A stretch of DNA of 64,000 bases from an uncultured Desulfobulbus sp. Lineage in GTDB: Bacteria > Desulfobacterota > Desulfobulbia > Desulfobulbales > Desulfobulbaceae. Within the stretch, counting starts at the first letter, position 1. The number at the start of each line of letters is the position of its first letter. The notes beneath the pieces are model-generated. The model did not search any database and was not told the origin of the DNA. It saw nothing but the letters and a program-made list of their open reading frames with translations. Positions 2,020 to 46,819 of this stretch are shown here, in pieces. The translations under genes were made by a program, and so were the position numbers. Where the stretch lies: assembly GCA_963664075.1 (NCBI GenBank), contig OY760916.1, positions 4,124,710 through 4,188,709 of the forward strand, written 5' to 3'.

Positions 2020-2082
2020 ATACATGAAATTTTCTTGTGCAAGATGCGTTGTTCAGAACCCATCCGCCGTCGCGGATTCAGG
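2020..2082 (+). repeat. Right-end fragment of the 218-bp MITE-like family
   Basis: 2041-2082 matches 22162-22203 at about 35/42 nt (ATGCRTTGTTCAG...CCGCCGTCRCGGATTCAGG). The upstream ATACATGAA is also shared with the full element. Confidence 0.7.
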
Positions 2083-4985: not shown

Positions 4986-5810
4986 TTAGGACTTTTTCGC
5001 CAATGCTGGCGGCAAAGCACGAACCTGGCCTGCAGTATAGCCCTGTTTCCTGCTCAACTCCCCAAGCCGTTTTATCCGTTCCACCGCCTCGGGATGCGAG
5101 GCAAAATAGCTCGTAATCCCTCGTCCTCGCTCCTCATTCTGCATGGCGCTGAAAAATTCCGTCGCCCCGCCCACATGGCCATAACGACAGTTCAGCGCTG
5201 TCAAGGCCAGACTGTCCGCCCGGGATTCCCGTGATCTGGAGTAGCTTGCCGTCCCCAACCCCACGGCCGGCGTGGCTAATTTGGTCAAACCGGAATCCGA
5301 TCCTGTCAAAAAGGCCATCATGGCGGTCAAGACGATGCCGCGCCCCATGCCACTTAAATGATCGCGATGCTTGAAATGCGCCAGCTCATGGGCCAGCACA
5401 AAGGCGAGACCGTTTTCAGATTGAACCTTGTCGAGAATCCCGGAGAGAACGATAATCCGTCCTCCGGGCAAGGCCAGTGCATTCGCGGTATCTGCCTCCA
5501 CCAGATGGACCGTGACTGGATAGCCGACATCGATACAGCGACCAAGTTCGTACACCAACTGCTGAATATCAGCCTCTCCAGGGAGAGGTTTCCCCACAGA
5601 CTCTTTCACGGTAGGGGAGAGGGCCGTAAAAATCTGGGCCTCCATTTTGGGAGAAATCCACATCACTGCCCTGTCCACCAACCAACCGGAGATGACAAAG
5701 ACAGCTATACAGGTCAGTATCACCCCCGCTAGAAGGACTGCAAATTCCTGCAAGGGGCTGTTGTGACTGACGTTGTTATTCTTCTGAGGATAGGAAGGTT
5801 TGAACTCCAT
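4986..5810 (-). CDS. M48 family zinc metallopeptidase, membrane-anchored
   Basis: ANALALPGG, VLAHELAHF (HExxH), YSRSRESRAD, FASHP; N-terminal TM helix. Confidence 0.9.
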   Translation of the reverse strand: MEFKPSYPQKNNNVSHNSPLQEFAVLLAGVILTCIAVFVISGWLVDRAVMWISPKMEAQIFTALSPTVKESVGKPLPGEADIQQLVYELGRCIDVGYPVTVHLVEADTANALALPGGRIIVLSGILDKVQSENGLAFVLAHELAHFKHRDHLSGMGRGIVLTAMMAFLTGSDSGLTKLATPAVGLGTASYSRSRESRADSLALTALNCRYGHVGGATEFFSAMQNEERGRGITSYFASHPEAVERIKRLGELSRKQGYTAGQVRALPPALAKKS

Positions 5811-8232: not shown

Positions 8233-8310
8233 CAGCCTGGTGCCTACGCTCCGCGTGGGTACCTCACCAGCACGCTCTGCGTGGCCCTGTCACCACTCCC
8301 GGCAGACCTC
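8233..8310. repeat. Direct-repeat copy 1: two REP hairpins plus the 3' end of the RAYT gene
   Basis: 70/78 nt identical, ungapped, to 8891-8968; contains TACGCTCCGCGTG and CACGCTCTGCGTG hairpins. Confidence 0.9.
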
Positions 8311-8823
8311 CACCAGCCCCGGCAACCCGGCGTAATTACGTGCACTCGAATAGCGCCAATGCAGGGGATCGTCTACATAGCCCCGCCTGACCGGATTGTT
8401 GTGGATGTACTCCACCTTCTGCCGCATCATCGCCTCGCCCTGGATCTGTTGCGGGTGGGCCCCCTCCTGCCAAAGCTGATACTGGCGATCCGTCTTAAAG
8501 CCCGCCTTACGCAGGGCCAACTGCTGCAAGATCCACTCAGCCTTGCTTTCCCTGAGCCGATCAATCATTTTCCTGGCTGTGAAGGACTTGAAGTCGCCGA
8601 TCTCCTTGCCCAGATTTTCGGCAGCACCGACCAGGTGCAGATGATTTTCCATAATCACATAGGCATACAGGGTCAACCGCCCATGGTTTTGCAGAAAGCG
8701 CCAGGAATCCAGGAGGATCTCCACCAGGGCCGGGTTACTGAACAGGGGGAGCCAGTTGACCACGGTACAGGTGAGGAAATGGGGGGCTCGGGCGTCAGAG
8801 ATGGTGTAGCGGCTTCTGGCCAT
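8290..8823 (-). mobile_element. REP-associated tyrosine transposase (RAYT/TnpA-REP, Y1 HUH family)
   Basis: HFLTCTVVNW, YVIMENHLHLV (HUH), KVEYIHNNPV (catalytic Tyr); flanked by ACGCTC[CT]GCGT palindromes. Confidence 0.92.
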
Positions 8824-8833
8824 GGGTTCCTCT

Positions 8834-8846
8834 GACGCGGAGCGTC
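8834..8846. repeat. REP-like palindrome just upstream of the RAYT start
   Basis: GACGCGGAGCGTC, the same core as the flanking hairpins in the opposite orientation. Confidence 0.75.
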
Positions 8847-8890
8847 TAGTTTATGTTCCCAACGAGACAAAAAAACTGAGGAGCAAATTC

Positions 8891-8968
8891 CAGCCTGGTA
8901 CCTACGCTCCGCGTGGGGACCTCACCTCCATGCTCTGCGTGGACCTGTCACCACACCCGACAGACCTC
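8891..8968. repeat. Direct-repeat copy 2: two REP hairpins plus a relic RAYT 3' end
   Basis: 70/78 nt identical to 8233-8310. The minus strand reads VEVCRVW-stop, against VEVCREW-stop in the RAYT. Confidence 0.9.
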
Positions 8969-11916
8969 TACAATGTATCAAGCAGCATCCGCACTTTATT
9001 CGCAAGAGCCGTATGGGAAAAGGGTTTTTGAATGAACTGAATCCCCTGCTCAAGCACCCCCTGATGAGCAATAATATCAGCCGTATATCCAGACATGAAC
9101 AAACTCTTTGCATGAGGGTGTTCTTCCAACACCCGCTGCACCAGCTCACGACCATTCATCTCCGGCATGACCACATCGGTGAGGACAAGATCGATGTTTC
9201 CGGCATAGACAGTGCTTTTATGCACCGCATCATGGGGAGAGGTTGAGGCGATGACCGTATACCCCAGGTGTTCCAGCATGGCCTTTGTCATTTCTAAAAT
9301 TTCTGGCTCGTCTTCCACCACCAGGATTGTTTCTGTCCCCCCCACCGTCTGTACGACTGTCTCCCTGACCTCCTCGTGGGCAGATTCTTCAACCCGGGGG
9401 ATATACACTGTAAAAACGGTTCCTTGTCCCGGCTCACTATAGACATTCACAAAACCGTCATTCTGGCGGACAATGCCATAAACCGTGGCCAGCCCCAGAC
9501 CTGTCCCCTGGCCCACAATCTTTGTGGTGAAAAAAGGTTCGAACACCTGAGTCACGGTGTCCTTATCCATACCGCTTCCGTTATCGGCCACGGAAATCCG
9601 AACATAGTCACCGGGAACAAATCCTGTATGCGCCGCACAGTAGGTTGCATCAAAACTGCAATTTTGTGTCTCCACTATAATGGTGCCAACTCCTGCAATG
9701 GCATCCCGCGCATTGACACAGAGATTGGCCAGGATCTGATCAATCTGTGAAGGATCCGCCTTCACTGACCCAAGCTCCTCTTCGGGCAACCAGGTGAGGG
9801 TAATATCCTCGCCGATGAGCCGCCGCAAAATCGAAAGCATATTTTCGATGGTGGTATTGAGGTTCAATAACTTAGGGGCAATGGGTTGTTTTCGGGCAAA
9901 AGCGAGCAGCTGGCGGGTCAAATCAGCAGAACGATCCACAATGGTGCGGATGGCCTGAAAACGATGATAATCGGGATCTGTGGGGTCACGTTTGAGCATG
10001 GCCATATCGGCATGGCCCTGGACCACCATGAGCATATTATTAAAATCATGGGCTATGCCACCGGCAAGCCGGGCAACGGATTCCATCTTCTGTGATTGCA
10101 GCAGCTGGGCTTCCAGGGTTGCATGTTCTTCTTCAGCCTGCTTGCGCTCACTGATATCGACATGGGTACCGACCATACGCAGGGCCTTTCCGTTCTCATC
10201 CCGTGCTGCCGCTTTGCCCCGCCCCTGAATCCATTTCCAACTTCCGTCTCGACTGCGCAGTCGATACTCAACAATAAAGGATTCGCATCGTCCTTCAATG
10301 CAGTCCGTGTTGGCAGCTATAACGGATTCCCGATCCTCTGGATGAAGCATCTCCATCCAGACATTGGCATCCTGGGGTTTTTCCTCCCCCTCGTACCCCA
10401 GCATGGCCCAGTAATTGGGACTGTAATAGACCGAGTTTTCCTGAATGTTCCAGTCCCAGAGACCATCCTTGGTGGCCTCCATGGCCAGCCGAAACCGCTC
10501 TTCACCAACCCGCAGTGCCTCCTCGGCCTGTCTGCGTTCGGCCATGGCCCGTGCCTGCTGCATATTCTGATAGGCAGAGAGGGAGAGTTGGTTGGCAAGG
10601 GTATGCAGGGCATTAGCTATCTGTTCAAAACGTTTTCGCTCCATTGAAGGAACTTCCGCGTAGGCCTCCATGAAGACCTCTTCATCAACGCCGATTTTCT
10701 GCGCATACTGTCGTAGAGAGGGCTCATCCTGATGCTCGTTGCGCACCTGCCCGATAAGCCAGTTGGCCACGTGATGCCCGCCCACGCTGATACTGGCCCC
10801 TGCATCCCAAAGCCCTCCACTGAGACAGAGCTGGACAATGGGGCCCTCGGGATGATGTCGTCCTAAAATCGCATCAGATCTGAAACAGTTGGCACAGCCG
10901 ACCTCTGTCTGACGGATGATACCGCTGCACAGACGTGTAAAATTACTGGGCCGGGTTATGGGGACGCCATCGGTCCTGGTAATGATGGAGGCAACATTGG
11001 TGGCATTGGCGAACTCATCCTGAATCTGCTGAATACGATCGAGATCAAAAAGTTCTTCAAAACTGAACGAACTCTCCCGGGTCGCTGGACAGGTGAGGGC
11101 GACAAGACGTTTTTCCAGAGCTTCTTCCAGCTGTTTAAATTCGGTGATATCACGAAATTCGACCACCCGTACCGTCTTCCCTTTGTAGGGAATGTTGGCA
11201 CCACGCAGACGGACAGGATACTGGCTGCCGTCTTTACGCTCAGCCAAAGCCTCATAGGCTGCATCATAACCCCTTTGTATATTTCGCCTGACCAAATCGC
11301 GCGTTTTTGCAGCAATGAGTTGCAGTCCATCCATGCCGATCAGTTCATCCAGGGGGTATCCGGTCTGCTCGGCCAATCCCTGGTTACAATCAAGAATCAC
11401 CCCTTGATCATGAATGGCGATACCACCAAAGGAGGCATTGTGCAGGGCTCGAAACCTCTCTTCACTTTCACGTAAAACCTGCTCATGTTCTTTTTGCTGA
11501 GTAATATCCTGAAAAAAACAGTGGGTTTGGAGAAAAGTTCCATCTTGTGCTGTGGCAATTTTCCCATGAAAAGAGACAAAAATGCGACTGCCGTCCTGCT
11601 TGAGCAGAGCAAATTCCACCCCGGAGATTTCACCTGCCTGTTTAAAACGAGCAAAGTTGACCTGAAACGCTGCGTGGGCCTCAGGAGAGAGAAAAACGGT
11701 AAAATTTTTCCCCAAGACCTCTTCACGAGACCACCCCAGTATGTCGAGCCAGCGCTGGTTTACATCAATGAGATCACCATCAATGCTGAGCGATTGATAG
11801 GCCAATGAAGATTGCTCATGCAGCTGACGAAGTTGTTGACACTCTGCGCGCAAGGCATCAATCTGCTGATGCAATGCAATGTACTGCTGTGATTCCTGCC
11901 CGGTTATTGTATCCAT
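8968..11916 (-). CDS. Hybrid sensor histidine kinase/response regulator (PAS-PAS-PocR-PAS-HisKA-HATPase-REC)
   Basis: PocR-like region (IQDEFANAT...CLSGGLWDAGASISVGG), GIAHDFNN H-box, GQGTGLGLA G2 box, VLTDVVMPEMNG receiver. Confidence 0.92.
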   Translation of the reverse strand: MDTITGQESQQYIALHQQIDALRAECQQLRQLHEQSSLAYQSLSIDGDLIDVNQRWLDILGWSREEVLGKNFTVFLSPEAHAAFQVNFARFKQAGEISGVEFALLKQDGSRIFVSFHGKIATAQDGTFLQTHCFFQDITQQKEHEQVLRESEERFRALHNASFGGIAIHDQGVILDCNQGLAEQTGYPLDELIGMDGLQLIAAKTRDLVRRNIQRGYDAAYEALAERKDGSQYPVRLRGANIPYKGKTVRVVEFRDITEFKQLEEALEKRLVALTCPATRESSFSFEELFDLDRIQQIQDEFANATNVASIITRTDGVPITRPSNFTRLCSGIIRQTEVGCANCFRSDAILGRHHPEGPIVQLCLSGGLWDAGASISVGGHHVANWLIGQVRNEHQDEPSLRQYAQKIGVDEEVFMEAYAEVPSMERKRFEQIANALHTLANQLSLSAYQNMQQARAMAERRQAEEALRVGEERFRLAMEATKDGLWDWNIQENSVYYSPNYWAMLGYEGEEKPQDANVWMEMLHPEDRESVIAANTDCIEGRCESFIVEYRLRSRDGSWKWIQGRGKAAARDENGKALRMVGTHVDISERKQAEEEHATLEAQLLQSQKMESVARLAGGIAHDFNNMLMVVQGHADMAMLKRDPTDPDYHRFQAIRTIVDRSADLTRQLLAFARKQPIAPKLLNLNTTIENMLSILRRLIGEDITLTWLPEEELGSVKADPSQIDQILANLCVNARDAIAGVGTIIVETQNCSFDATYCAAHTGFVPGDYVRISVADNGSGMDKDTVTQVFEPFFTTKIVGQGTGLGLATVYGIVRQNDGFVNVYSEPGQGTVFTVYIPRVEESAHEEVRETVVQTVGGTETILVVEDEPEILEMTKAMLEHLGYTVIASTSPHDAVHKSTVYAGNIDLVLTDVVMPEMNGRELVQRVLEEHPHAKSLFMSGYTADIIAHQGVLEQGIQFIQKPFSHTALANKVRMLLDTL

Positions 11917-20998: not shown

Positions 20999-21871
20999 CT
21001 AAAACTGTCCCTCCATAACCTGCAAACACATATCCGCCTTGTTGAGGGTATAGAGGTGGACACCGGGGGCTCCACCGTCAATGAGTTCTTTCACCTGTTG
21101 GCGCGCATAGGCCACACCGATCTCATAGACCGCCTTGGCACCGCCATCTTCATGGGCCTTGAGGAGTTTATTGATCAGCTTGCCTGGAATGCGCGCGTTA
21201 CACATCTCCAGGATAAAGCGCAATGATCCAAGGTTACGAATCGGGAGAACGCCGGGAACGACCGGCACTTCAACCCCACGTCGCTTCAGTCGCTCGACGT
21301 AATCGAAATAGATGCGGTTATCAAAATAGAGCTGGGTGATCACGAAATCCGCGCCGCTTTGCACCTTGCGCCGCATCACCTCAAGATCAGCGGCAAAGGA
21401 GGGCGCCTCCGAATGGGCCTCAGGGAAGCCGGCAACTCCAATGGCAAACTCAGGATGATACTGGCGAATATGGCGCACCAGATCTTCTGCATAGGGAAAA
21501 TTGGCAAACAGCTCCGCGTCTGTGCCGCTAAAGCCGGTGGGACGATCGCCACGCAGGGCTAAAACGTTTTCAATGCCGAGTTTTTTGATTGCCTCTAAAA
21601 AACCGTCGATCTTGTCCTGATCGGCAGTCACACCGGTTAAATGCGGCATGATCTCAAACCCGCAGGTCTTGATCAACTGGCCACATATTTCCAGGGTGTT
21701 AGACTGGGTGGAACCACCAGCACCATAAGTGACCGAGGCAAAAAGAGGATTAAGTTGCCCCAGGTTTTGAGCGACCTCAAAAAATCCCGGCCATTCTTCT
21801 TTATTTTTTGGAGGAAAAAATTCTAACGAAACAAAAGGTTTGTGCGTTTTTATCAGTTGAGGAATCTGCAT
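20999..21871 (-). CDS. metF: 5,10-methylenetetrahydrofolate reductase
   Basis: VSLEFFPPK, SVTYGAGGS, LALRGD, GADFVITQLYFDN, GVHLYTLN. Confidence 0.95.
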   Translation of the reverse strand: MQIPQLIKTHKPFVSLEFFPPKNKEEWPGFFEVAQNLGQLNPLFASVTYGAGGSTQSNTLEICGQLIKTCGFEIMPHLTGVTADQDKIDGFLEAIKKLGIENVLALRGDRPTGFSGTDAELFANFPYAEDLVRHIRQYHPEFAIGVAGFPEAHSEAPSFAADLEVMRRKVQSGADFVITQLYFDNRIYFDYVERLKRRGVEVPVVPGVLPIRNLGSLRFILEMCNARIPGKLINKLLKAHEDGGAKAVYEIGVAYARQQVKELIDGGAPGVHLYTLNKADMCLQVMEGQF

Positions 21872-21985
21872 CCCCGTACTCCTTGGTTGAAGGTACGGTG
21901 GAGGCGCAGGGTCGTGCAGGATGCGCCTTCACCCTAAATATCTCGTTGAAATAGGTCGATACGTAGAGCAGGAACGTTATTCACC

Positions 21986-22203
21986 CCTGAACCCGTGAGC
22001 ATTCATCAGGGCGTCAATTTTGTTGTTTGTGACCTGACGATTAAAGTAAACTTTATCGGCAGGTTGCAGACAATGAAAGTGGCGTGCTGATGGGTGCCCC
22101 AGAGGGCGGCGGGTGAAACTGAACAATACATGAATTTGTAAAAAAACGTTGTCTCGTTAAAAAAATGCATTGTTCAGTGACCACCCGCCGTCACGGATTC
22201 AGG
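21986..22203. mobile_element. Putative 218-bp MITE, full copy, two internal hairpins
   Basis: 13-bp terminal inverted repeats CCTGAACCCGTGA / TCACGGATTCAGG (12/13); flanks TCACC and TCATC resemble a 5-bp target duplication; related fragments at 2020, 40549, 42740 and possibly 62799. Confidence 0.75.
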
Positions 22204-22226
22204 TCATCTACCACGGAGGGAAGACA

Positions 22227-22723: not shown

Positions 22724-23337
22724 TCCTTATCCTCGGCCTTACCCTTCCATGATTTTTCGGTGCCTCGAATCAGCCGCCCGATATTCTGGTAATGCTTGCC
22801 CCAGATCATGAGCACGACAAACACGGCCAACCACATTTTCCATGCCGGTACATGGAGAAGCGGCAGCCAGAGCAGCATGGAAAGCGACCCCAGAAGCGAA
22901 CCGAGTGAGACAAATCCAGAAAAATAGACAGCACCAAGAAAAACTATCAGGCAACCGAGCACGGCCAGCGGTGCCAGGTAGAGAAAAGCCCCAAGTGCGG
23001 TGGCCACCCCTTTGCCGCCTTTGAAGCCCAGGTAAACTGGAAACATATGTCCCAAAACCGAGGCAGCGCCACAGAAGGCTATAATAACCTCGTGGCCAGC
23101 AGATTCCCCAAGGGCTAGCCCCACGACAAACATGGGCAGGAATCCTTTCAAGAGATCACAGAGCAGGGTCAGCGCTCCCAGCTTTTTTCCTAAAAGGCGA
23201 GTAACATTGGTGGCGCCAATATTTTTACTTCCCTGATTCCGAATATCTATGCCGCTACCGCGGGAGAGAACCAGGCCAAAGGGGACAGCTCCCAGCAGAT
23301 AAGATAAAACGACACAAAGAATTCCAATACTGTTCAT
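22720..23337 (-). CDS. plsY: Glycerol-3-phosphate acyltransferase PlsY
   Basis: GSKNIGATNVTR, GHMFPVYLGFKGGKGVAT, HYQNIGRL. Confidence 0.95.
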   Translation of the reverse strand: MNSIGILCVVLSYLLGAVPFGLVLSRGSGIDIRNQGSKNIGATNVTRLLGKKLGALTLLCDLLKGFLPMFVVGLALGESAGHEVIIAFCGAASVLGHMFPVYLGFKGGKGVATALGAFLYLAPLAVLGCLIVFLGAVYFSGFVSLGSLLGSLSMLLWLPLLHVPAWKMWLAVFVVLMIWGKHYQNIGRLIRGTEKSWKGKAEDKE

Positions 23338-41177: not shown

Positions 41178-41929
41178 CGATTTGCAGGTGCCAGAATCTG
41201 TTGCAAAAAGAGCTGACTGCGCGGATTCTGCGGGTTGGTGAAAAAGGTATCTGGAGGAGCGACTTCGACAATGGCTCCGGCATCCATAAAGACGACCTTA
41301 TCGGCGACCTCGCGGGCAAAGCCCATCTCATGGGTCACCACCACCATGGTCATGCCTTCCTTGGCCAGGGCAACCATAACCTCGAGCACCTCATTGATCA
41401 TCTCAGGATCAAGGGCTGAGGTGGGCTCGTCAAAGAGCATGATCTTGGGCTCCATGGCAAGTGCGCGAGCAATGGCCACCCGCTGTTGCTGACCACCGGA
41501 GAGCTGAATGGGAAAATGGTGGGCCCGGTCACTCATGCCCACCTTTTCCAGCAGGTTCATGGCCAGGGACTCGGCCTGGGCCCGCTCCATTTTTTTGAGT
41601 TTGATCGGAGCCAGGGTCAGGTTATCCAGAACCGATTTATGTTTAAAGAGGTTAAAGCTCTGGAAAACCATGCCTACCTCCATGCGAATCTGATTAATAT
41701 CCTCGTCGGCACTGTACAAATTATGACCATCAACCACGATAGCACCGGAGTCAATGGACTCAAGACGATTGATGGTACGCAGCAGGGTCGACTTTCCCGA
41801 ACCGGAGGGTCCGAGTACCACCACCTTTTCACCCTGCTGGATATCCATATTGACATCACAGAGAGCTCGGTAGCTGCCGAAATATTTATTGATCTGCTGG
41901 AGTTGAATGATGGGTTCAGCGGCGTTCAT
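41174..41929 (-). CDS. Polar amino acid ABC transporter ATP-binding protein
   Basis: [42 protein letters not shown]. Confidence 0.95.
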
Positions 41930-42704
41930 AATGACTTAACCTGTTCTCCATGATGGAGATGAGCTTGGAGAGAATGAGGGTGATCAGCAGGTAGATCAGG
42001 GCAATCATCGTGTAGGTCTCAAAGTAGTTAAAACTCTCTGAGGCATACTCGCGACCGCGACGTAAAATATCAGCTACCGCCAAAATCGAAACCAGTGAGG
42101 TGTCTTTCAAAAGGGCAATGAACTCATTACCCACCGGAGGAAGAATAGTCCGCCAGGCCTGCGGCAGAATGACAAAGGCCATGGTTTGCCGGGGATTGAA
42201 TCCCAGCGACAGGGCAGCCTCAGTCTGCCCCAGATCAATGGACTTGATACCGGCACGAAAGACCTCCCCCATGTAGGCGCCGTAACAGAAAGCCATGGCA
42301 ATGACCGCGGCCACAATATCCGGCACCCGAACAAACCTTCCCAAGGCAAAATAGATGTAAAACAGCTGCACCAACAGGGGGATACCGCGCACCACCTCGA
42401 CATAGAGTGAGGCAATCAGGTTGATGAAACGGTTTTTCGACAGGCGACCCAGCCCGGTCAAAAGACCGATAACAATCGCCAACCCGATGGAAAGAACCGT
42501 TACCTCAAAGGTGACAAAGATACCGTCGGGAACAAACTTGAGGATATCGAGGTAAGGATCCGGTTTGACTAGAACAAGGGTGATGATCGTGCCCAGCGCC
42601 CCGAAAAGCGCAATCCACCAGGCATTGACCAGCCCTTTATCGTCCTTACGGGGAATAGCGGCACCATCACCGACATCGATTTTTGTGTTTTCAGATTCAG
42701 ACAT
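41916..42704 (-). CDS. Polar amino acid ABC transporter permease
   Basis: [38 protein letters not shown]. Confidence 0.95.
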
Positions 42705-42739: not shown

Positions 42740-42851
42740 CCAGAATTCATGAGCGTTCATCGGTGCGTCAGTTTCATTGCCTGCAATCTGCCGATTAAAG
42801 TAAACTTTATCGGTAGATTGCAGGCAATGAAGGTGGCGTACTGATGGGCAC
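42740..42851 (+). repeat. Left half (first hairpin) of the 218-bp MITE-like element
   Basis: Ungapped 89/112 identity to 21986-22097. Confidence 0.85.
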
Positions 42852-42857
42852 TTATGG

Positions 42858-42892
42858 AAAAAGAAATGCCGGGCACTTAGGCCCGGCATTTC
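42858..42892 (-). terminator. Terminator or stabilising hairpin after the substrate-binding protein gene
   Basis: GAAATGCCGGGC/GCCCGGCATTTC 12-bp stem followed by a T run on the minus strand. Confidence 0.75.
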
Positions 42893-42909: not shown

Positions 42910-43644
42910 TCACTGACCGATCCATTTCTTTTTCAGCTCCTGGTCAATCCCTTTGGCTTTGACCGCGGCGATGCCCTTGTTGATCAGCGCCAGTGCCTTT
43001 TTGTTCCCCTTGTGCACGGCGATGCCGTAATTCTCAGGCGTATCAGATTCGATGACCGTGGCGATCTTCAGATTTTCTTTATATTTATCAAGTGCGTAGT
43101 TGGCAGCAACCGGATCATCGCAAACAACGGCAGCAATACGGCCGACGTTCAGGTCTTCCATGGCCAGGCCAACCTCGTCGTAGGATTTAGGTACAACCCC
43201 ATCTGCAGCCTTAATAGCGAAATAACCGGTGGTGCCAATCTGGCCACCGACTTTCTCCCCTTTGAGATCTGCGAGACTCTTGGCAGTTGATTTTTTATTT
43301 ACGATCAACGCCTGACGTACGGTAAAGTAAGGATCAGAGAAATCCATGGCTTTTTTCCGCTCTTCGGTGATGGTCACCGAACTGGAAACCGCATCGTATT
43401 TGTTGGCAGCAAGTCCTGCAAAAATACCATCCCAGGCAGTATTCTTGAACACAGCCTTAAACCCGGCTTCTTTGGCAACGGCATTCATGTAATCGATCGC
43501 ATAGCCAACAACCTGTTTATCGCTGTTCACAAACTCCATAGGCGGCCAGGTAGCATCAGTGGCAAAAACGATGGTGGTCTCAGCAACAACCGGACTACAC
43601 AGGGCTCCGACCAAAAGCAAAGCGCTGACTATTCTCTTCAACAT
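42910..43644 (-). CDS. Basic/polar amino acid ABC transporter substrate-binding protein
   Basis: Signal peptide, ATDATWPPMEF, WDGIFAGL, ITEERKKAMDFSDPY. Start ATG 43644. Confidence 0.93.
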   Translation of the reverse strand: MLKRIVSALLLVGALCSPVVAETTIVFATDATWPPMEFVNSDKQVVGYAIDYMNAVAKEAGFKAVFKNTAWDGIFAGLAANKYDAVSSSVTITEERKKAMDFSDPYFTVRQALIVNKKSTAKSLADLKGEKVGGQIGTTGYFAIKAADGVVPKSYDEVGLAMEDLNVGRIAAVVCDDPVAANYALDKYKENLKIATVIESDTPENYGIAVHKGNKKALALINKGIAAVKAKGIDQELKKKWIGQ

Positions 43645-43908
43645 TGGGGGTCTCCTTATTGGAATGGTTGTAAATAAACTGTCCATCTACCATTTGAAGA
43701 AACCACCCGCAAGAAAAAGGTGAGATAGAGCAAGGGCAAATAACGGAAAATCAAATTACTGCTTCCCCTTGAAAACCAAGGTTTTTCTTGACCTTTTCAG
43801 AAACTTGCAGGTATACATCCACTATGATCACCTGGTATATTCTTCAACTTTTTACCTGATTTTTCTCACTGCACTCACCCCCTTTTACTTCGTCCTTATG
43901 AGGCCCCT

Positions 43909-46263: not shown

Positions 46264-46638
46264 ATGACGAAAGTAAACGAAGTGTACAAATGCGCACTCT
46301 GTGGAAACATTGTTGAAGTACTGCATGCCGGTGCCGGCGAACTGGTCTGTTGCGGCCAGGCCATGGGGCTGATGACCGAGAACACCGTTGACGCTGCCAA
46401 AGAAAAACATGTACCGGTCATTACCAAAGTGGCAGAAGGCTACAAGGTCGCTGTTGGCTCCGTGGCCCATCCCATGGAAGAGAAACACTATATTGAATTC
46501 ATCGAACTGATTGCCGACGGCAAGGTCTACCGCCAGGCTCTGAAGCCCGGCGAGGCCCCGGAGGCAACCTTCTGCATTCAGGCGGAAAACGTATCCGCCC
46601 GTGAATACTGCAATCTGCACGGGTTGTGGAAAGCCTGA
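46264..46638 (+). CDS. dfx: Desulfoferrodoxin (2Fe superoxide reductase)
   Basis: [10 protein letters not shown]...[25 protein letters not shown]. Start ATG 46264. Confidence 0.96.
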
Positions 46639-46639
46639 T

Positions 46640-46752
46640 TGTAAGCGATTACGGGGTACCGAATCTAAGGTGTTATCGGCCTGTTTACGTACATGTGTAC
46701 GCTTAACAGGCCGATGCCTAGCAGCTCCGGCACCCCACAACAACCGCTTACA
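46640..46752 (+). repeat. GTAAGCGAT hairpin repeat, copy 2 (about 113-nt rod)
   Basis: TGTAAGCG/CGCTTACA outer stem and ATCGGCCTGTT/AACAGGCCGAT inner stem; the 5' 27 nt match 19414-19440 at 24/27. Confidence 0.7.
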
Positions 46753-46819
46753 GATTCCATCACAGGGGTTCTTTCAGAGGCCTCTGATCTTTTGATCCAA
46801 ACCAATAAAAGGAAAAAAA

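Follow-up and report, generated by a model that had tools for sequence, protein, structure and literature searches.

A plus-strand rod hairpin carried by a short, probably IS1380-type transposable element of Desulfobulbia

The stretch of DNA considered here (the window) comprises 64,000 nucleotides of an uncultured Desulfobulbus sp. (GenBank assembly GCA_963664075.1, contig OY760916.1, positions 4,124,710 to 4,188,709), and contains at 21999-22097 a near-perfect, 99-nt hairpin of the plus strand, referred to below as the rod, of which a second copy is found at 42753-42851. The neighbours of copy 1 are metF (MTHFR, 20999-21871) and a J-domain open reading frame (ORF) and plsY, while copy 2 lies between genes for an amino-acid ABC transporter permease (41916-42704) and a solute-binding protein (42910-43686). 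All of these flanking genes are on the minus strand, in agreement with an earlier note on this DNA, made from the sequence alone, which had described the plus strand of the rod as antisense to metF and the ABC genes. The rod is the left module of a ~218-bp non-autonomous transposon, a MITE (miniature inverted-repeat transposable element), and is a structure that belongs to the plus strand in single-stranded form. Compensatory and wobble substitutions have kept its fold in subfamilies that are deeply diverged.

The rod as the left module of a MITE

The repeat to which the rod belongs starts at 21986, 13 nt before the hairpin, and copy 1 runs to 22203 (218 bp), with a length of 213-220 bp among the aligned copies with flanks. 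The family has terminal inverted repeats (TIRs) of 13-15 bp, CCTGRATCCGTGAGC ... (C)GTCACGGATTCAGG, and the TIR pair CCTGRATCCGTGA ... TCACGGATTCAGG is present in 49 of the 56 extracted copies. A 5-bp target-site duplication (TSD) flanks 36 of 60 full family copies without a mismatch and a further 12 with a single one, and its composition is A+T-rich (79%, against a background of 48%). The insertion itself is proven by an empty site, as a contig of a ~92%-identical organism assembled from public reads (organism B) skips exactly 21981-22203, i.e. 218 + 5 nt. The element thus combines TIRs, a TSD of fixed length and an empty site with being short, multi-copy and devoid of a transposase gene, which are the features of a MITE, and the placing of the hairpin within such an element by the earlier note is borne out by the TIRs, the 5-bp TSD and the empty site in the relative.

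Scripted pairing of 47 positions per rod copy gave 35 Watson–Crick (WC) pairs, nine G-T, one G-G, two A-G and no A-C for copy 1, and 38 WC, seven G-T, one G-G and one C-A for copy 2, with a bulged T and a TAAA loop common to both. The coordinates, pair counts, bulge and loop that had been reported for both copies were reproduced exactly in this way, and the three positions said to have changed on both arms could be located at 22001/22095 (A-T in copy 1, G-C in copy 2), 22026/22070 (T-A to C-G) and 22033/22063 (C-G to T-A); a fourth differing pair goes from G-G to T-A. Folded as RNA, the plus strand of copy 1 reaches -58.1 kcal/mol, a value attained by none of 200 shuffles (mean -23.3, z -11.4), compared to only -30.5 kcal/mol for the minus strand, and the corresponding values for the rod of copy 2 are -72.6 and -48.0 kcal/mol. 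The bit scores of a covariance model are likewise higher for the plus than for the minus strand, with 122.5 vs 44.7 for copy 1 and 112.6 vs 68.8 for copy 2.

Folded as a whole, the plus strand of the element gives a four-way structure in which pairing of the TIRs closes the whole, and which consists of the TIR stem, the rod, a mini-hairpin of 3-4 bp and a second long hairpin (Table 1). The TIR stem is WC-paired in 716 of 782 cells, and the loop of the mini-hairpin varies among copies between GAA, GCA, GTA, AAA and AGA.

Table 1. Positions of the MITE, its parts and its relatives in the window (TIR-L, left terminal inverted repeat)
Feature	Position	Strand	Remarks
Isolated remnant of a right end (...CCATCCGCCGTCGCGGATTCAGG) belonging to this MITE family, without the left part	2031..2082	+	nhmmer match, profile positions 168-219
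Left target-site duplication TCACC	21981..21985	.	4/5 bases match TCATC at 22204-22208
Left terminal inverted repeat CCTGAACCCGTGAGC	21986..22000	+	Family consensus CCTGRATCCGTGAGC; kept at left end of all copies
Rod hairpin	21999..22097	+	44 pairs, 3 purine mismatches, bulged T 22042, TAAA loop
Mini-hairpin CCC-AGA-GGG	22098..22106	+	Folds; family consensus C(GNA)G on plus = cUNCGg on minus
Right-module hairpin CGGCGGGTG...CACCCGCCG around variable AT-rich loop	22107..22190	+	Folds
Right terminal inverted repeat TCACGGATTCAGG	22191..22203	+	Copy alignment
Right target-site duplication TCATC	22204..22208	.	Copy alignment, empty site
Second copy, older decayed 'rod-only' form	42740..42864	+	TIR-L decayed (CCAGAATTCATGAGC); rod intact; right end decayed
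Third, diverged rod-only relative	46633..46762	-	Degenerate TIR-like ends TGGAATCTGTAAGCG ... CGCTTACAATCAGG

Copy 2 is also present at the orthologous site in organism B. A reading of this copy as the ortholog of a rod-only copy of D. alkaliphilus (L101) was ruled out, the flanking 262-aa proteins being unrelated. The diverged relative on the minus strand is recognised by the covariance model at 21.4 bits (E 0.0014) and folds at -70.7 kcal/mol, compared to -62.6 kcal/mol for the opposite strand.

Two further observations concern the surroundings of the two copies. On the minus strand, directly after the solute-binding-protein gene, there is an intrinsic-terminator-like hairpin at 42863-42892 (12 pairs, then TTTTTCC), so that the rod-only copy 2 has this terminator on one side and the start codon of the permease gene (42704) on the other. 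Inside plsY, ~44 nt at 23000-23043 have ~4-10-fold the contig depth of their surroundings in three runs, and this stretch is a short repeat or else a segment of high conservation that is common to other organisms in the samples.

Conservation of the plus-strand fold across Desulfobulbia

Among the fetched loci, ~95 rod-bearing copies occur in D. alkaliphilus, D. rhabdoformis and metagenome-assembled genomes (MAGs) of Desulfobulbia, together with ~45 rod-less short forms. The invariant apical 22-mer of the rod has 57 occurrences in three genomes of a species-representative collection, namely those of Desulfobulbus alkaliphilus DSM 24258, D. rhabdoformis DSM 8777 and one Desulfobulbaceae MAG, and a search for the core gave 0 matches in viral contigs and three in metagenome contigs. 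Three forms of the element circulate, i.e. the full form, a short, rod-less form of ~125 bp (L028 1834-1947, L005 4329-4441, L041 3215-3333, L040 3173-3296, L014 6341-6459 and others) and a rod-only form of ~126 bp. The short forms show several different deletion junctions, which suggests recurrent loss of the palindrome, and the same deletion (an 84-nt skip) was also seen in three metatranscriptome runs.

A scan with the terminus led to diverged relatives in Desulfocapsaceae, Desulfurivibrionaceae and other Desulfobacterota MAGs, in which the arm sequence is little alike and the architecture is kept. A sister 'type 2' rod in other Desulfobacterota MAGs (L172, L076, L091, L066, L170, L121, L114, L132, L146 and L159) has a self-complementary GCAGAUGC/GCAGAUGC segment, forming tandem G.A, and a conserved CAAGG internal loop, and some of its copies have additional insertions within the rod.

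The evidence that the fold is conserved, and on one strand, comes from two sets of copies. Over the 43 pairs scored in the set of 49 close full copies, 1617 cells were WC, 443 G-T, 11 A-C and 28 other, and RNAalifold gave -69.9 kcal/mol for the plus strand vs -21.2 kcal/mol for the minus strand. A diverse set of 23 representatives, for which 45 pairs were predicted, showed compensatory changes at 29 of the 45, and 93.9% of its cells were paired, compared to 79.7% in shuffled and 35-44% in slid alignments; on none of five measures did any of 500 shuffles reach the observed value. Its pair classes were 787 WC, 180 G-T, 16 A-C and 47 other, with G-T recurring in at least two sequences at 27 pair positions and A-C at three. 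Both the covariation across many copies, which the earlier note had proposed as a check, and the excess of G-T over A-C that it had seen in two copies were therefore found in the wider family (443:11 in the close copies and 180:16 in the representatives).

The asymmetry extends to the predicted stability of single copies, as in each of 63 the plus strand has the more stable fold, with a difference of 29.3 +/- 5.5 kcal/mol, and it is confined to the rod, as the right module of the same copies is without strand asymmetry. The mismatches of the TIR stem lean the same way as those of the rod, with 42 G-T vs 10 A-C on the plus strand. Over the rods, the covariance model scores 110-142 bits in the sense direction and 35-60 in the antisense direction.

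The rod so defined has ~45 pairs, one fifth of which are G.U/G.T wobbles; among these are a tandem 5'-UG/GU that is conserved and stretches of three consecutive U.G pairs. Two features are kept in sequence as well as structure in all types, namely an internal G.A mismatch, CAGNU/AGAUG (tandem in the sister type), and an apical GAU[U]A/UAUC stem with a bulged U; copy 1 of the window has an A.G variant of the former, CAAUU/AAGUG, and the latter stem. The G.A mismatch and the bulged-U stem resemble recognition motifs.

IS1380-type ends and resemblance to known systems

The 15-nt terminus of the MITE is found in identical form on full-length insertion sequences (ISs) of 1.4-1.7 kb in many phyla, and ISs with the same 13-15-nt ends were identified at loci L085, L152, L169, L171, L061, L144, L102 and L110. 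Their transposases match DDE_Tnp_1 and DDE_Tnp_1_4 (IS1380 type) and have a mutual identity of 38-45%. In the sole transposase scanned, a 283-aa fragment, the match to PF01609 was above the cut-off (34.7 vs 23 bits) and that to PF13701 just below it (34.5 vs 34.7 bits). IS1380 elements make target duplications of 4-5 bp (PMC12116815), with which the 5-bp TSD of the MITE agrees. Because its termini are common to IS1380-type ISs and its duplication is of the same length, the element is, on this sequence evidence, assigned to the IS1380 type. The right module was also considered as a homolog of a transposase leader on account of a resemblance seen by eye (TCACCCG..AGGTGA), and this was rejected since nhmmer finds no significant similarity; the likeness is one by eye, and the polarity of the element with respect to an ancestral transposase is uncertain.

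Considering the systems already described, IS1380 ISs (e.g. ISEcp1/ISEc9) and their MITE derivatives share with the rod MITE the terminal 15 nt, termini that begin with CC and a 5-bp duplication, but the rod MITE is without a transposase, and the features described for IS1380 do not include a structured interior specific to one strand. No Rfam family matched the window or eight related loci at the gathering threshold, and a scan at an E-value threshold gave generic miRNA-precursor matches only, far below the gathering threshold (32 vs 150 bits). Full-text literature searches found no description of the rod MITE family.

The closest precedent in kind is bcr1 of the Bacillus cereus group, a MITE-like repeat of ~155 bp with 5-bp direct repeats, which is transcribed and in which compensatory changes keep an RNA-level structure (PMC3184786). 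As such repeats were known, the description of the rod by the earlier note as a candidate for an undescribed system was too strong. Both bcr1 and the rod MITE are MITE-like repeats with a 5-bp duplication and with compensatory changes that preserve a single-strand fold, but their sequence, host and fold are unrelated (two stem-loops in bcr1 vs one 45-pair rod) and the parent IS family of bcr1 is not IS1380. We know of no description of lineage-only selection, as discussed below for the rod, in bcr1.

The ERIC, Correia/NEMIS and YPAL MITEs of proteobacteria are similarly short and TIR-bounded, form long RNA hairpins if co-transcribed and have orientation-dependent effects on mRNA (PMC3184786); they differ in acting via host transcripts at each locus, whereas copies of the rod show no individual constraint and almost no orientation preference. 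IS10 RNA-OUT and other antisense stem-loop RNAs of ISs are likewise IS-borne, strand-specific and very stable stem-loops with mismatches, but RNA-OUT is equipped with a promoter and overlaps with the start of the transposase, whereas the rod MITE has no promoter, transposase or target sequence.

REPINs are also non-autonomous, hairpin-forming repeats, and Bertels and Rainey (2011) reportedly found that the REPIN stem is kept by compensatory change in 'master' sequences, implying a single-stranded intermediate. They differ from the rod MITE in having neither TIRs nor a TSD, and in their GTAG motif and HUH enzyme. The window itself contains, at 8233-8971, an ORF resembling a REP-associated tyrosine transposase (RAYT; 8290-8823, minus strand, with HLHLV and YIHNNPV motifs) between two 81-nt repeats containing repetitive extragenic palindromic (REP) sequences, at 8233-8313 and 8891-8971, which are 89% identical. 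The REPs of this RAYT are unrelated in sequence to the rod, and a REPIN/REP-RAYT reading of the element was rejected on that ground and on account of its TIRs and TSD. A RAYT had earlier been proposed as a possible partner of the hairpin; the one in the window belongs to a different repeat system and is unlikely to have that role. In D. rhabdoformis, one end of the MITE copies at L044 ~2060-2100 and L050 ~5420-5450 is replaced or adjoined by GC-rich palindromes that resemble REPs (GTGGGCAC...GTGCCCAC), suggesting insertion of REPs into or beside MITEs. Locus L162 (5164-5523) has a tRNA gene (5451-5523) at a distance of ~70 nt from its copy of the MITE.

Three further readings were rejected. 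The presence of TIRs and a TSD rules out a palindrome-associated element of the IS200/IS605 type, which has neither. An integron attC site is contradicted by the lack, on reading, of R''/R' core sites (RYYYAAC / GTTRRRY) at the base of the rod and by copies that are dispersed singly, each with a TSD. The dozens of dispersed copies with TSDs, and neighbours in the window such as metF, the J-domain ORF and the ABC transporter genes, likewise speak against a retron msr-msd. Structured MITEs (of the bcr1 and ERIC type) and, conceptually, REPIN hairpins were thus already known; what is new is that the affiliation is with IS1380, that a rod formed on one strand only and with two conserved motifs is so large and so deeply conserved, and that there is direct evidence of a constraint limited to the propagating lineage.

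The site of selection and the possible role of the fold

Private substitutions, i.e. those of single copies scored against their five nearest relatives, comprised 12 changes from WC to G-U, 11 from WC to A-C and 37 from WC to a transversion mismatch. Their rate per column was 1.1 at paired positions, no lower than the 0.7 at unpaired ones, and 19% of them were non-disruptive, near the ~22% estimated for unconstrained change. The pair-breaking share of states was 80% for singletons, 43% for states in 2-5 copies, many of which are parallel hits in unrelated copies, and 4% for states in at least six copies, and among these common states G.U outnumbers A.C by 20 to 1. The orientation of the element to flanking ORFs is near random (32 antisense and 29 sense with respect to the upstream gene, 33 and 23 with respect to the downstream gene). 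Scored by the GC skew of 8 kb of flanking sequence, there is a weak bias placing the plus strand on the C-rich, mostly gene-antisense strand (52:32, p ~0.04, uncorrected and with some loci counted twice).

The neutral spectrum of private changes and the near-random orientation locate selection on the propagating lineage and not on each copy, and they rule out selection by the host on each copy individually. The constraint thus lies on the lineage that leaves descendants, and inserted copies, including those of the window, decay neutrally and are not maintained. The suggestion of the earlier note that selection acts on a strand-specific RNA or single-stranded DNA (ssDNA) structure therefore stands in so far as the fold is conserved on the plus strand, and has to be restricted to the copy-spawning lineage.

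Together, the lineage-only constraint, the neutral decay and the near-random orientation argue that the fold matters in cis for the lineage that produces copies, where it would serve mobilisation, or persistence as a source, rather than for the host at individual loci. In the explanation that we tentatively favour, as plausible but short of probable, the plus strand of a source copy would be exposed as a transcript read in from outside, since scans for promoters and terminators found no sigma-70-like promoter or terminator inside the element. This transcript would fold into the above four-way structure with paired TIRs, and its rod may be bound by a protein, either the IS1380-type transposase or a host factor, favouring the mobilisation of that copy. 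The further proposal that mobilisation of this IS1380-type element depends on a strand-specific folded single strand, as an RNA cofactor or an ssDNA fold-back, which would be sensed via the G.A and bulged-U motifs, is a rather unlikely one. The tandem and triple runs of wobble pairs in the rod, being ordinary in RNA helices and poor in DNA, tip the balance slightly towards RNA and away from ssDNA. The absence of a U-tract after the rod shows that it is not an intrinsic terminator.

A number of points weigh against an RNA-mediated role in mobilisation. None of ~90 full-length IS1380 relatives, examined by a TIR scan, tblastn and a protein-guided scan that gave 80 IS1380 loci, carries the rod, and nhmmer detected no similarity to the MITE beyond the termini in 90 IS loci. 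Neither the window nor ~100 Desulfobulbus loci (~10% of each genome) contained an autonomous partner or a transposase match. TIRs with a 5-bp TSD are the signature of a double-strand DDE reaction, which counts against RNA and ssDNA alike, and we know of no DDE or IS1380 transposition mechanism that uses RNA or a folded single strand. The loops of the mini-hairpin (GAA, GCA and GTA) fit the GNA triloop, which is stable in DNA, on the plus strand, or the stable RNA loop cUNCGg on the minus strand, better than an RNA motif of the plus strand. Contigs of soda-lake and sediment metatranscriptomes hold the element with diverging flanks, which fits read-through from many loci, but the data are undirected and may include DNA. 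The test of neutral decay is based on ~100 private substitutions in draft assemblies, and rods with one inherited mismatch have still spread to 2-3 copies, so that any requirement for the fold would be a quantitative one.

Many of the same data could be explained by a folded ssDNA substrate, which we regard as doubtful. Here the plus DNA strand would be exposed at the replication fork or following DNA uptake or transfer, the TIRs would pair and the rod form, and the fold-back would be seen by the transposase or by a structure-specific enzyme. The covariation and strand asymmetry apply to this model equally, DNA parameters give the same four-way fold for the whole plus strand (-62.8 vs -52.8 kcal/mol), and the absence of an internal promoter, the stable-triloop sequences already mentioned and the precedents of REPIN/RAYT, IS200/IS605 and attC are all in keeping with it, as is the repeated deletion of the rod at different junctions, which is expected for hairpin extrusion in vivo. 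Set against these are the double-stranded DDE reaction indicated by the TIRs and fixed TSD, and a content of 20% G.T, including the tandem and triple runs, that weakens a DNA stem. ssDNA transposons moreover show a strong replication-strand bias, whereas that of the element is weak and points to the C-rich strand, not to the lagging-strand template.

It is improbable, in our view, that the rod has no part in transposition and that a few copies co-opted by the host, as RNA hairpins in particular transcripts, are the only ones to stay intact over long periods and seed later bursts when a transposase arrives, which would make the history of the family look as if constrained by structure. Such a reservoir would account for the neutral decay of copies with constraint on deep branches only, and copy 2 of the window, with the best rod in spite of decayed TIRs and with its retention at the orthologous site in organism B, is in keeping with it; ERIC, Correia and bcr1 structured repeats do act in host transcripts (PMC3184786). 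However, the genes beside both window copies run antisense to the plus strand, the analysis identified no conserved copy that is orthologous and in sense orientation, and a domesticated copy need not retain functional TIRs. The persistence of architecture and motifs across many genomes and subfamilies would also need either many independent domestications or a very old one.

Distinctly improbable is a trans-acting, element-encoded RNA, whereby one or a few copies would express the rod as a stable small RNA, acting e.g. as a regulator of, or decoy for, the transposase or a host or defence protein, and the other copies would be redundant. The conserved internal-loop and bulge motifs do resemble protein-binding sites, short, high-depth metatranscriptome contigs fall within the rod, and redundancy would account for the weak constraint on each copy; on the other hand, neither a promoter nor a terminator flanks the rod, Rfam has no match for it, and selection on a redundant product should not by itself tie the structure to the copies that multiply.

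That the rod has no function, being a palindrome left by the formation of the MITE from two fused IS ends with a G-T excess due to mutational bias, is very improbable and close to refuted by the private spectrum, the covariation and the pair classes: other MITEs with the same terminus are also near-palindromes (L145, L163 and L159) and the first ~10 bases of the rod resemble, by eye, terminus-adjacent IS sequence (L169/L171), but a mutational origin is ruled out because the current spectrum is symmetric (12 vs 11) and the copies face both ways, leaving replication or transcription bias no consistent element strand to act on, and deeply diverged rods with almost no common arm sequence are nevertheless 94% paired, with 29 covarying pairs.

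Elements of the IS1380 family, i.e. ISEcp1 and its relatives, mobilise clinically important resistance genes, and the mechanism of their transposition is poorly understood. A structure kept throughout the traceable history of the family, yet open to decay in a copy after its insertion, shows the pattern to be expected of a feature that acts in cis on propagation, and the same is known for RNA structure in the master genes of SINEs and for the hairpins of REPINs. Should mobilisation require the rod, this would expose an RNA or ssDNA step in a DDE (piggyBac-related) family for which none has been described, and wild-type and strand-flipped rods would provide a simple test system. If the rod is not needed, the family would be a clean example of 'master copy' dynamics imitating functional constraint. 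In either case, the rod MITE is a new structured repeat for the annotation of Desulfobulbia genomes, including those of relatives of the cable bacteria.

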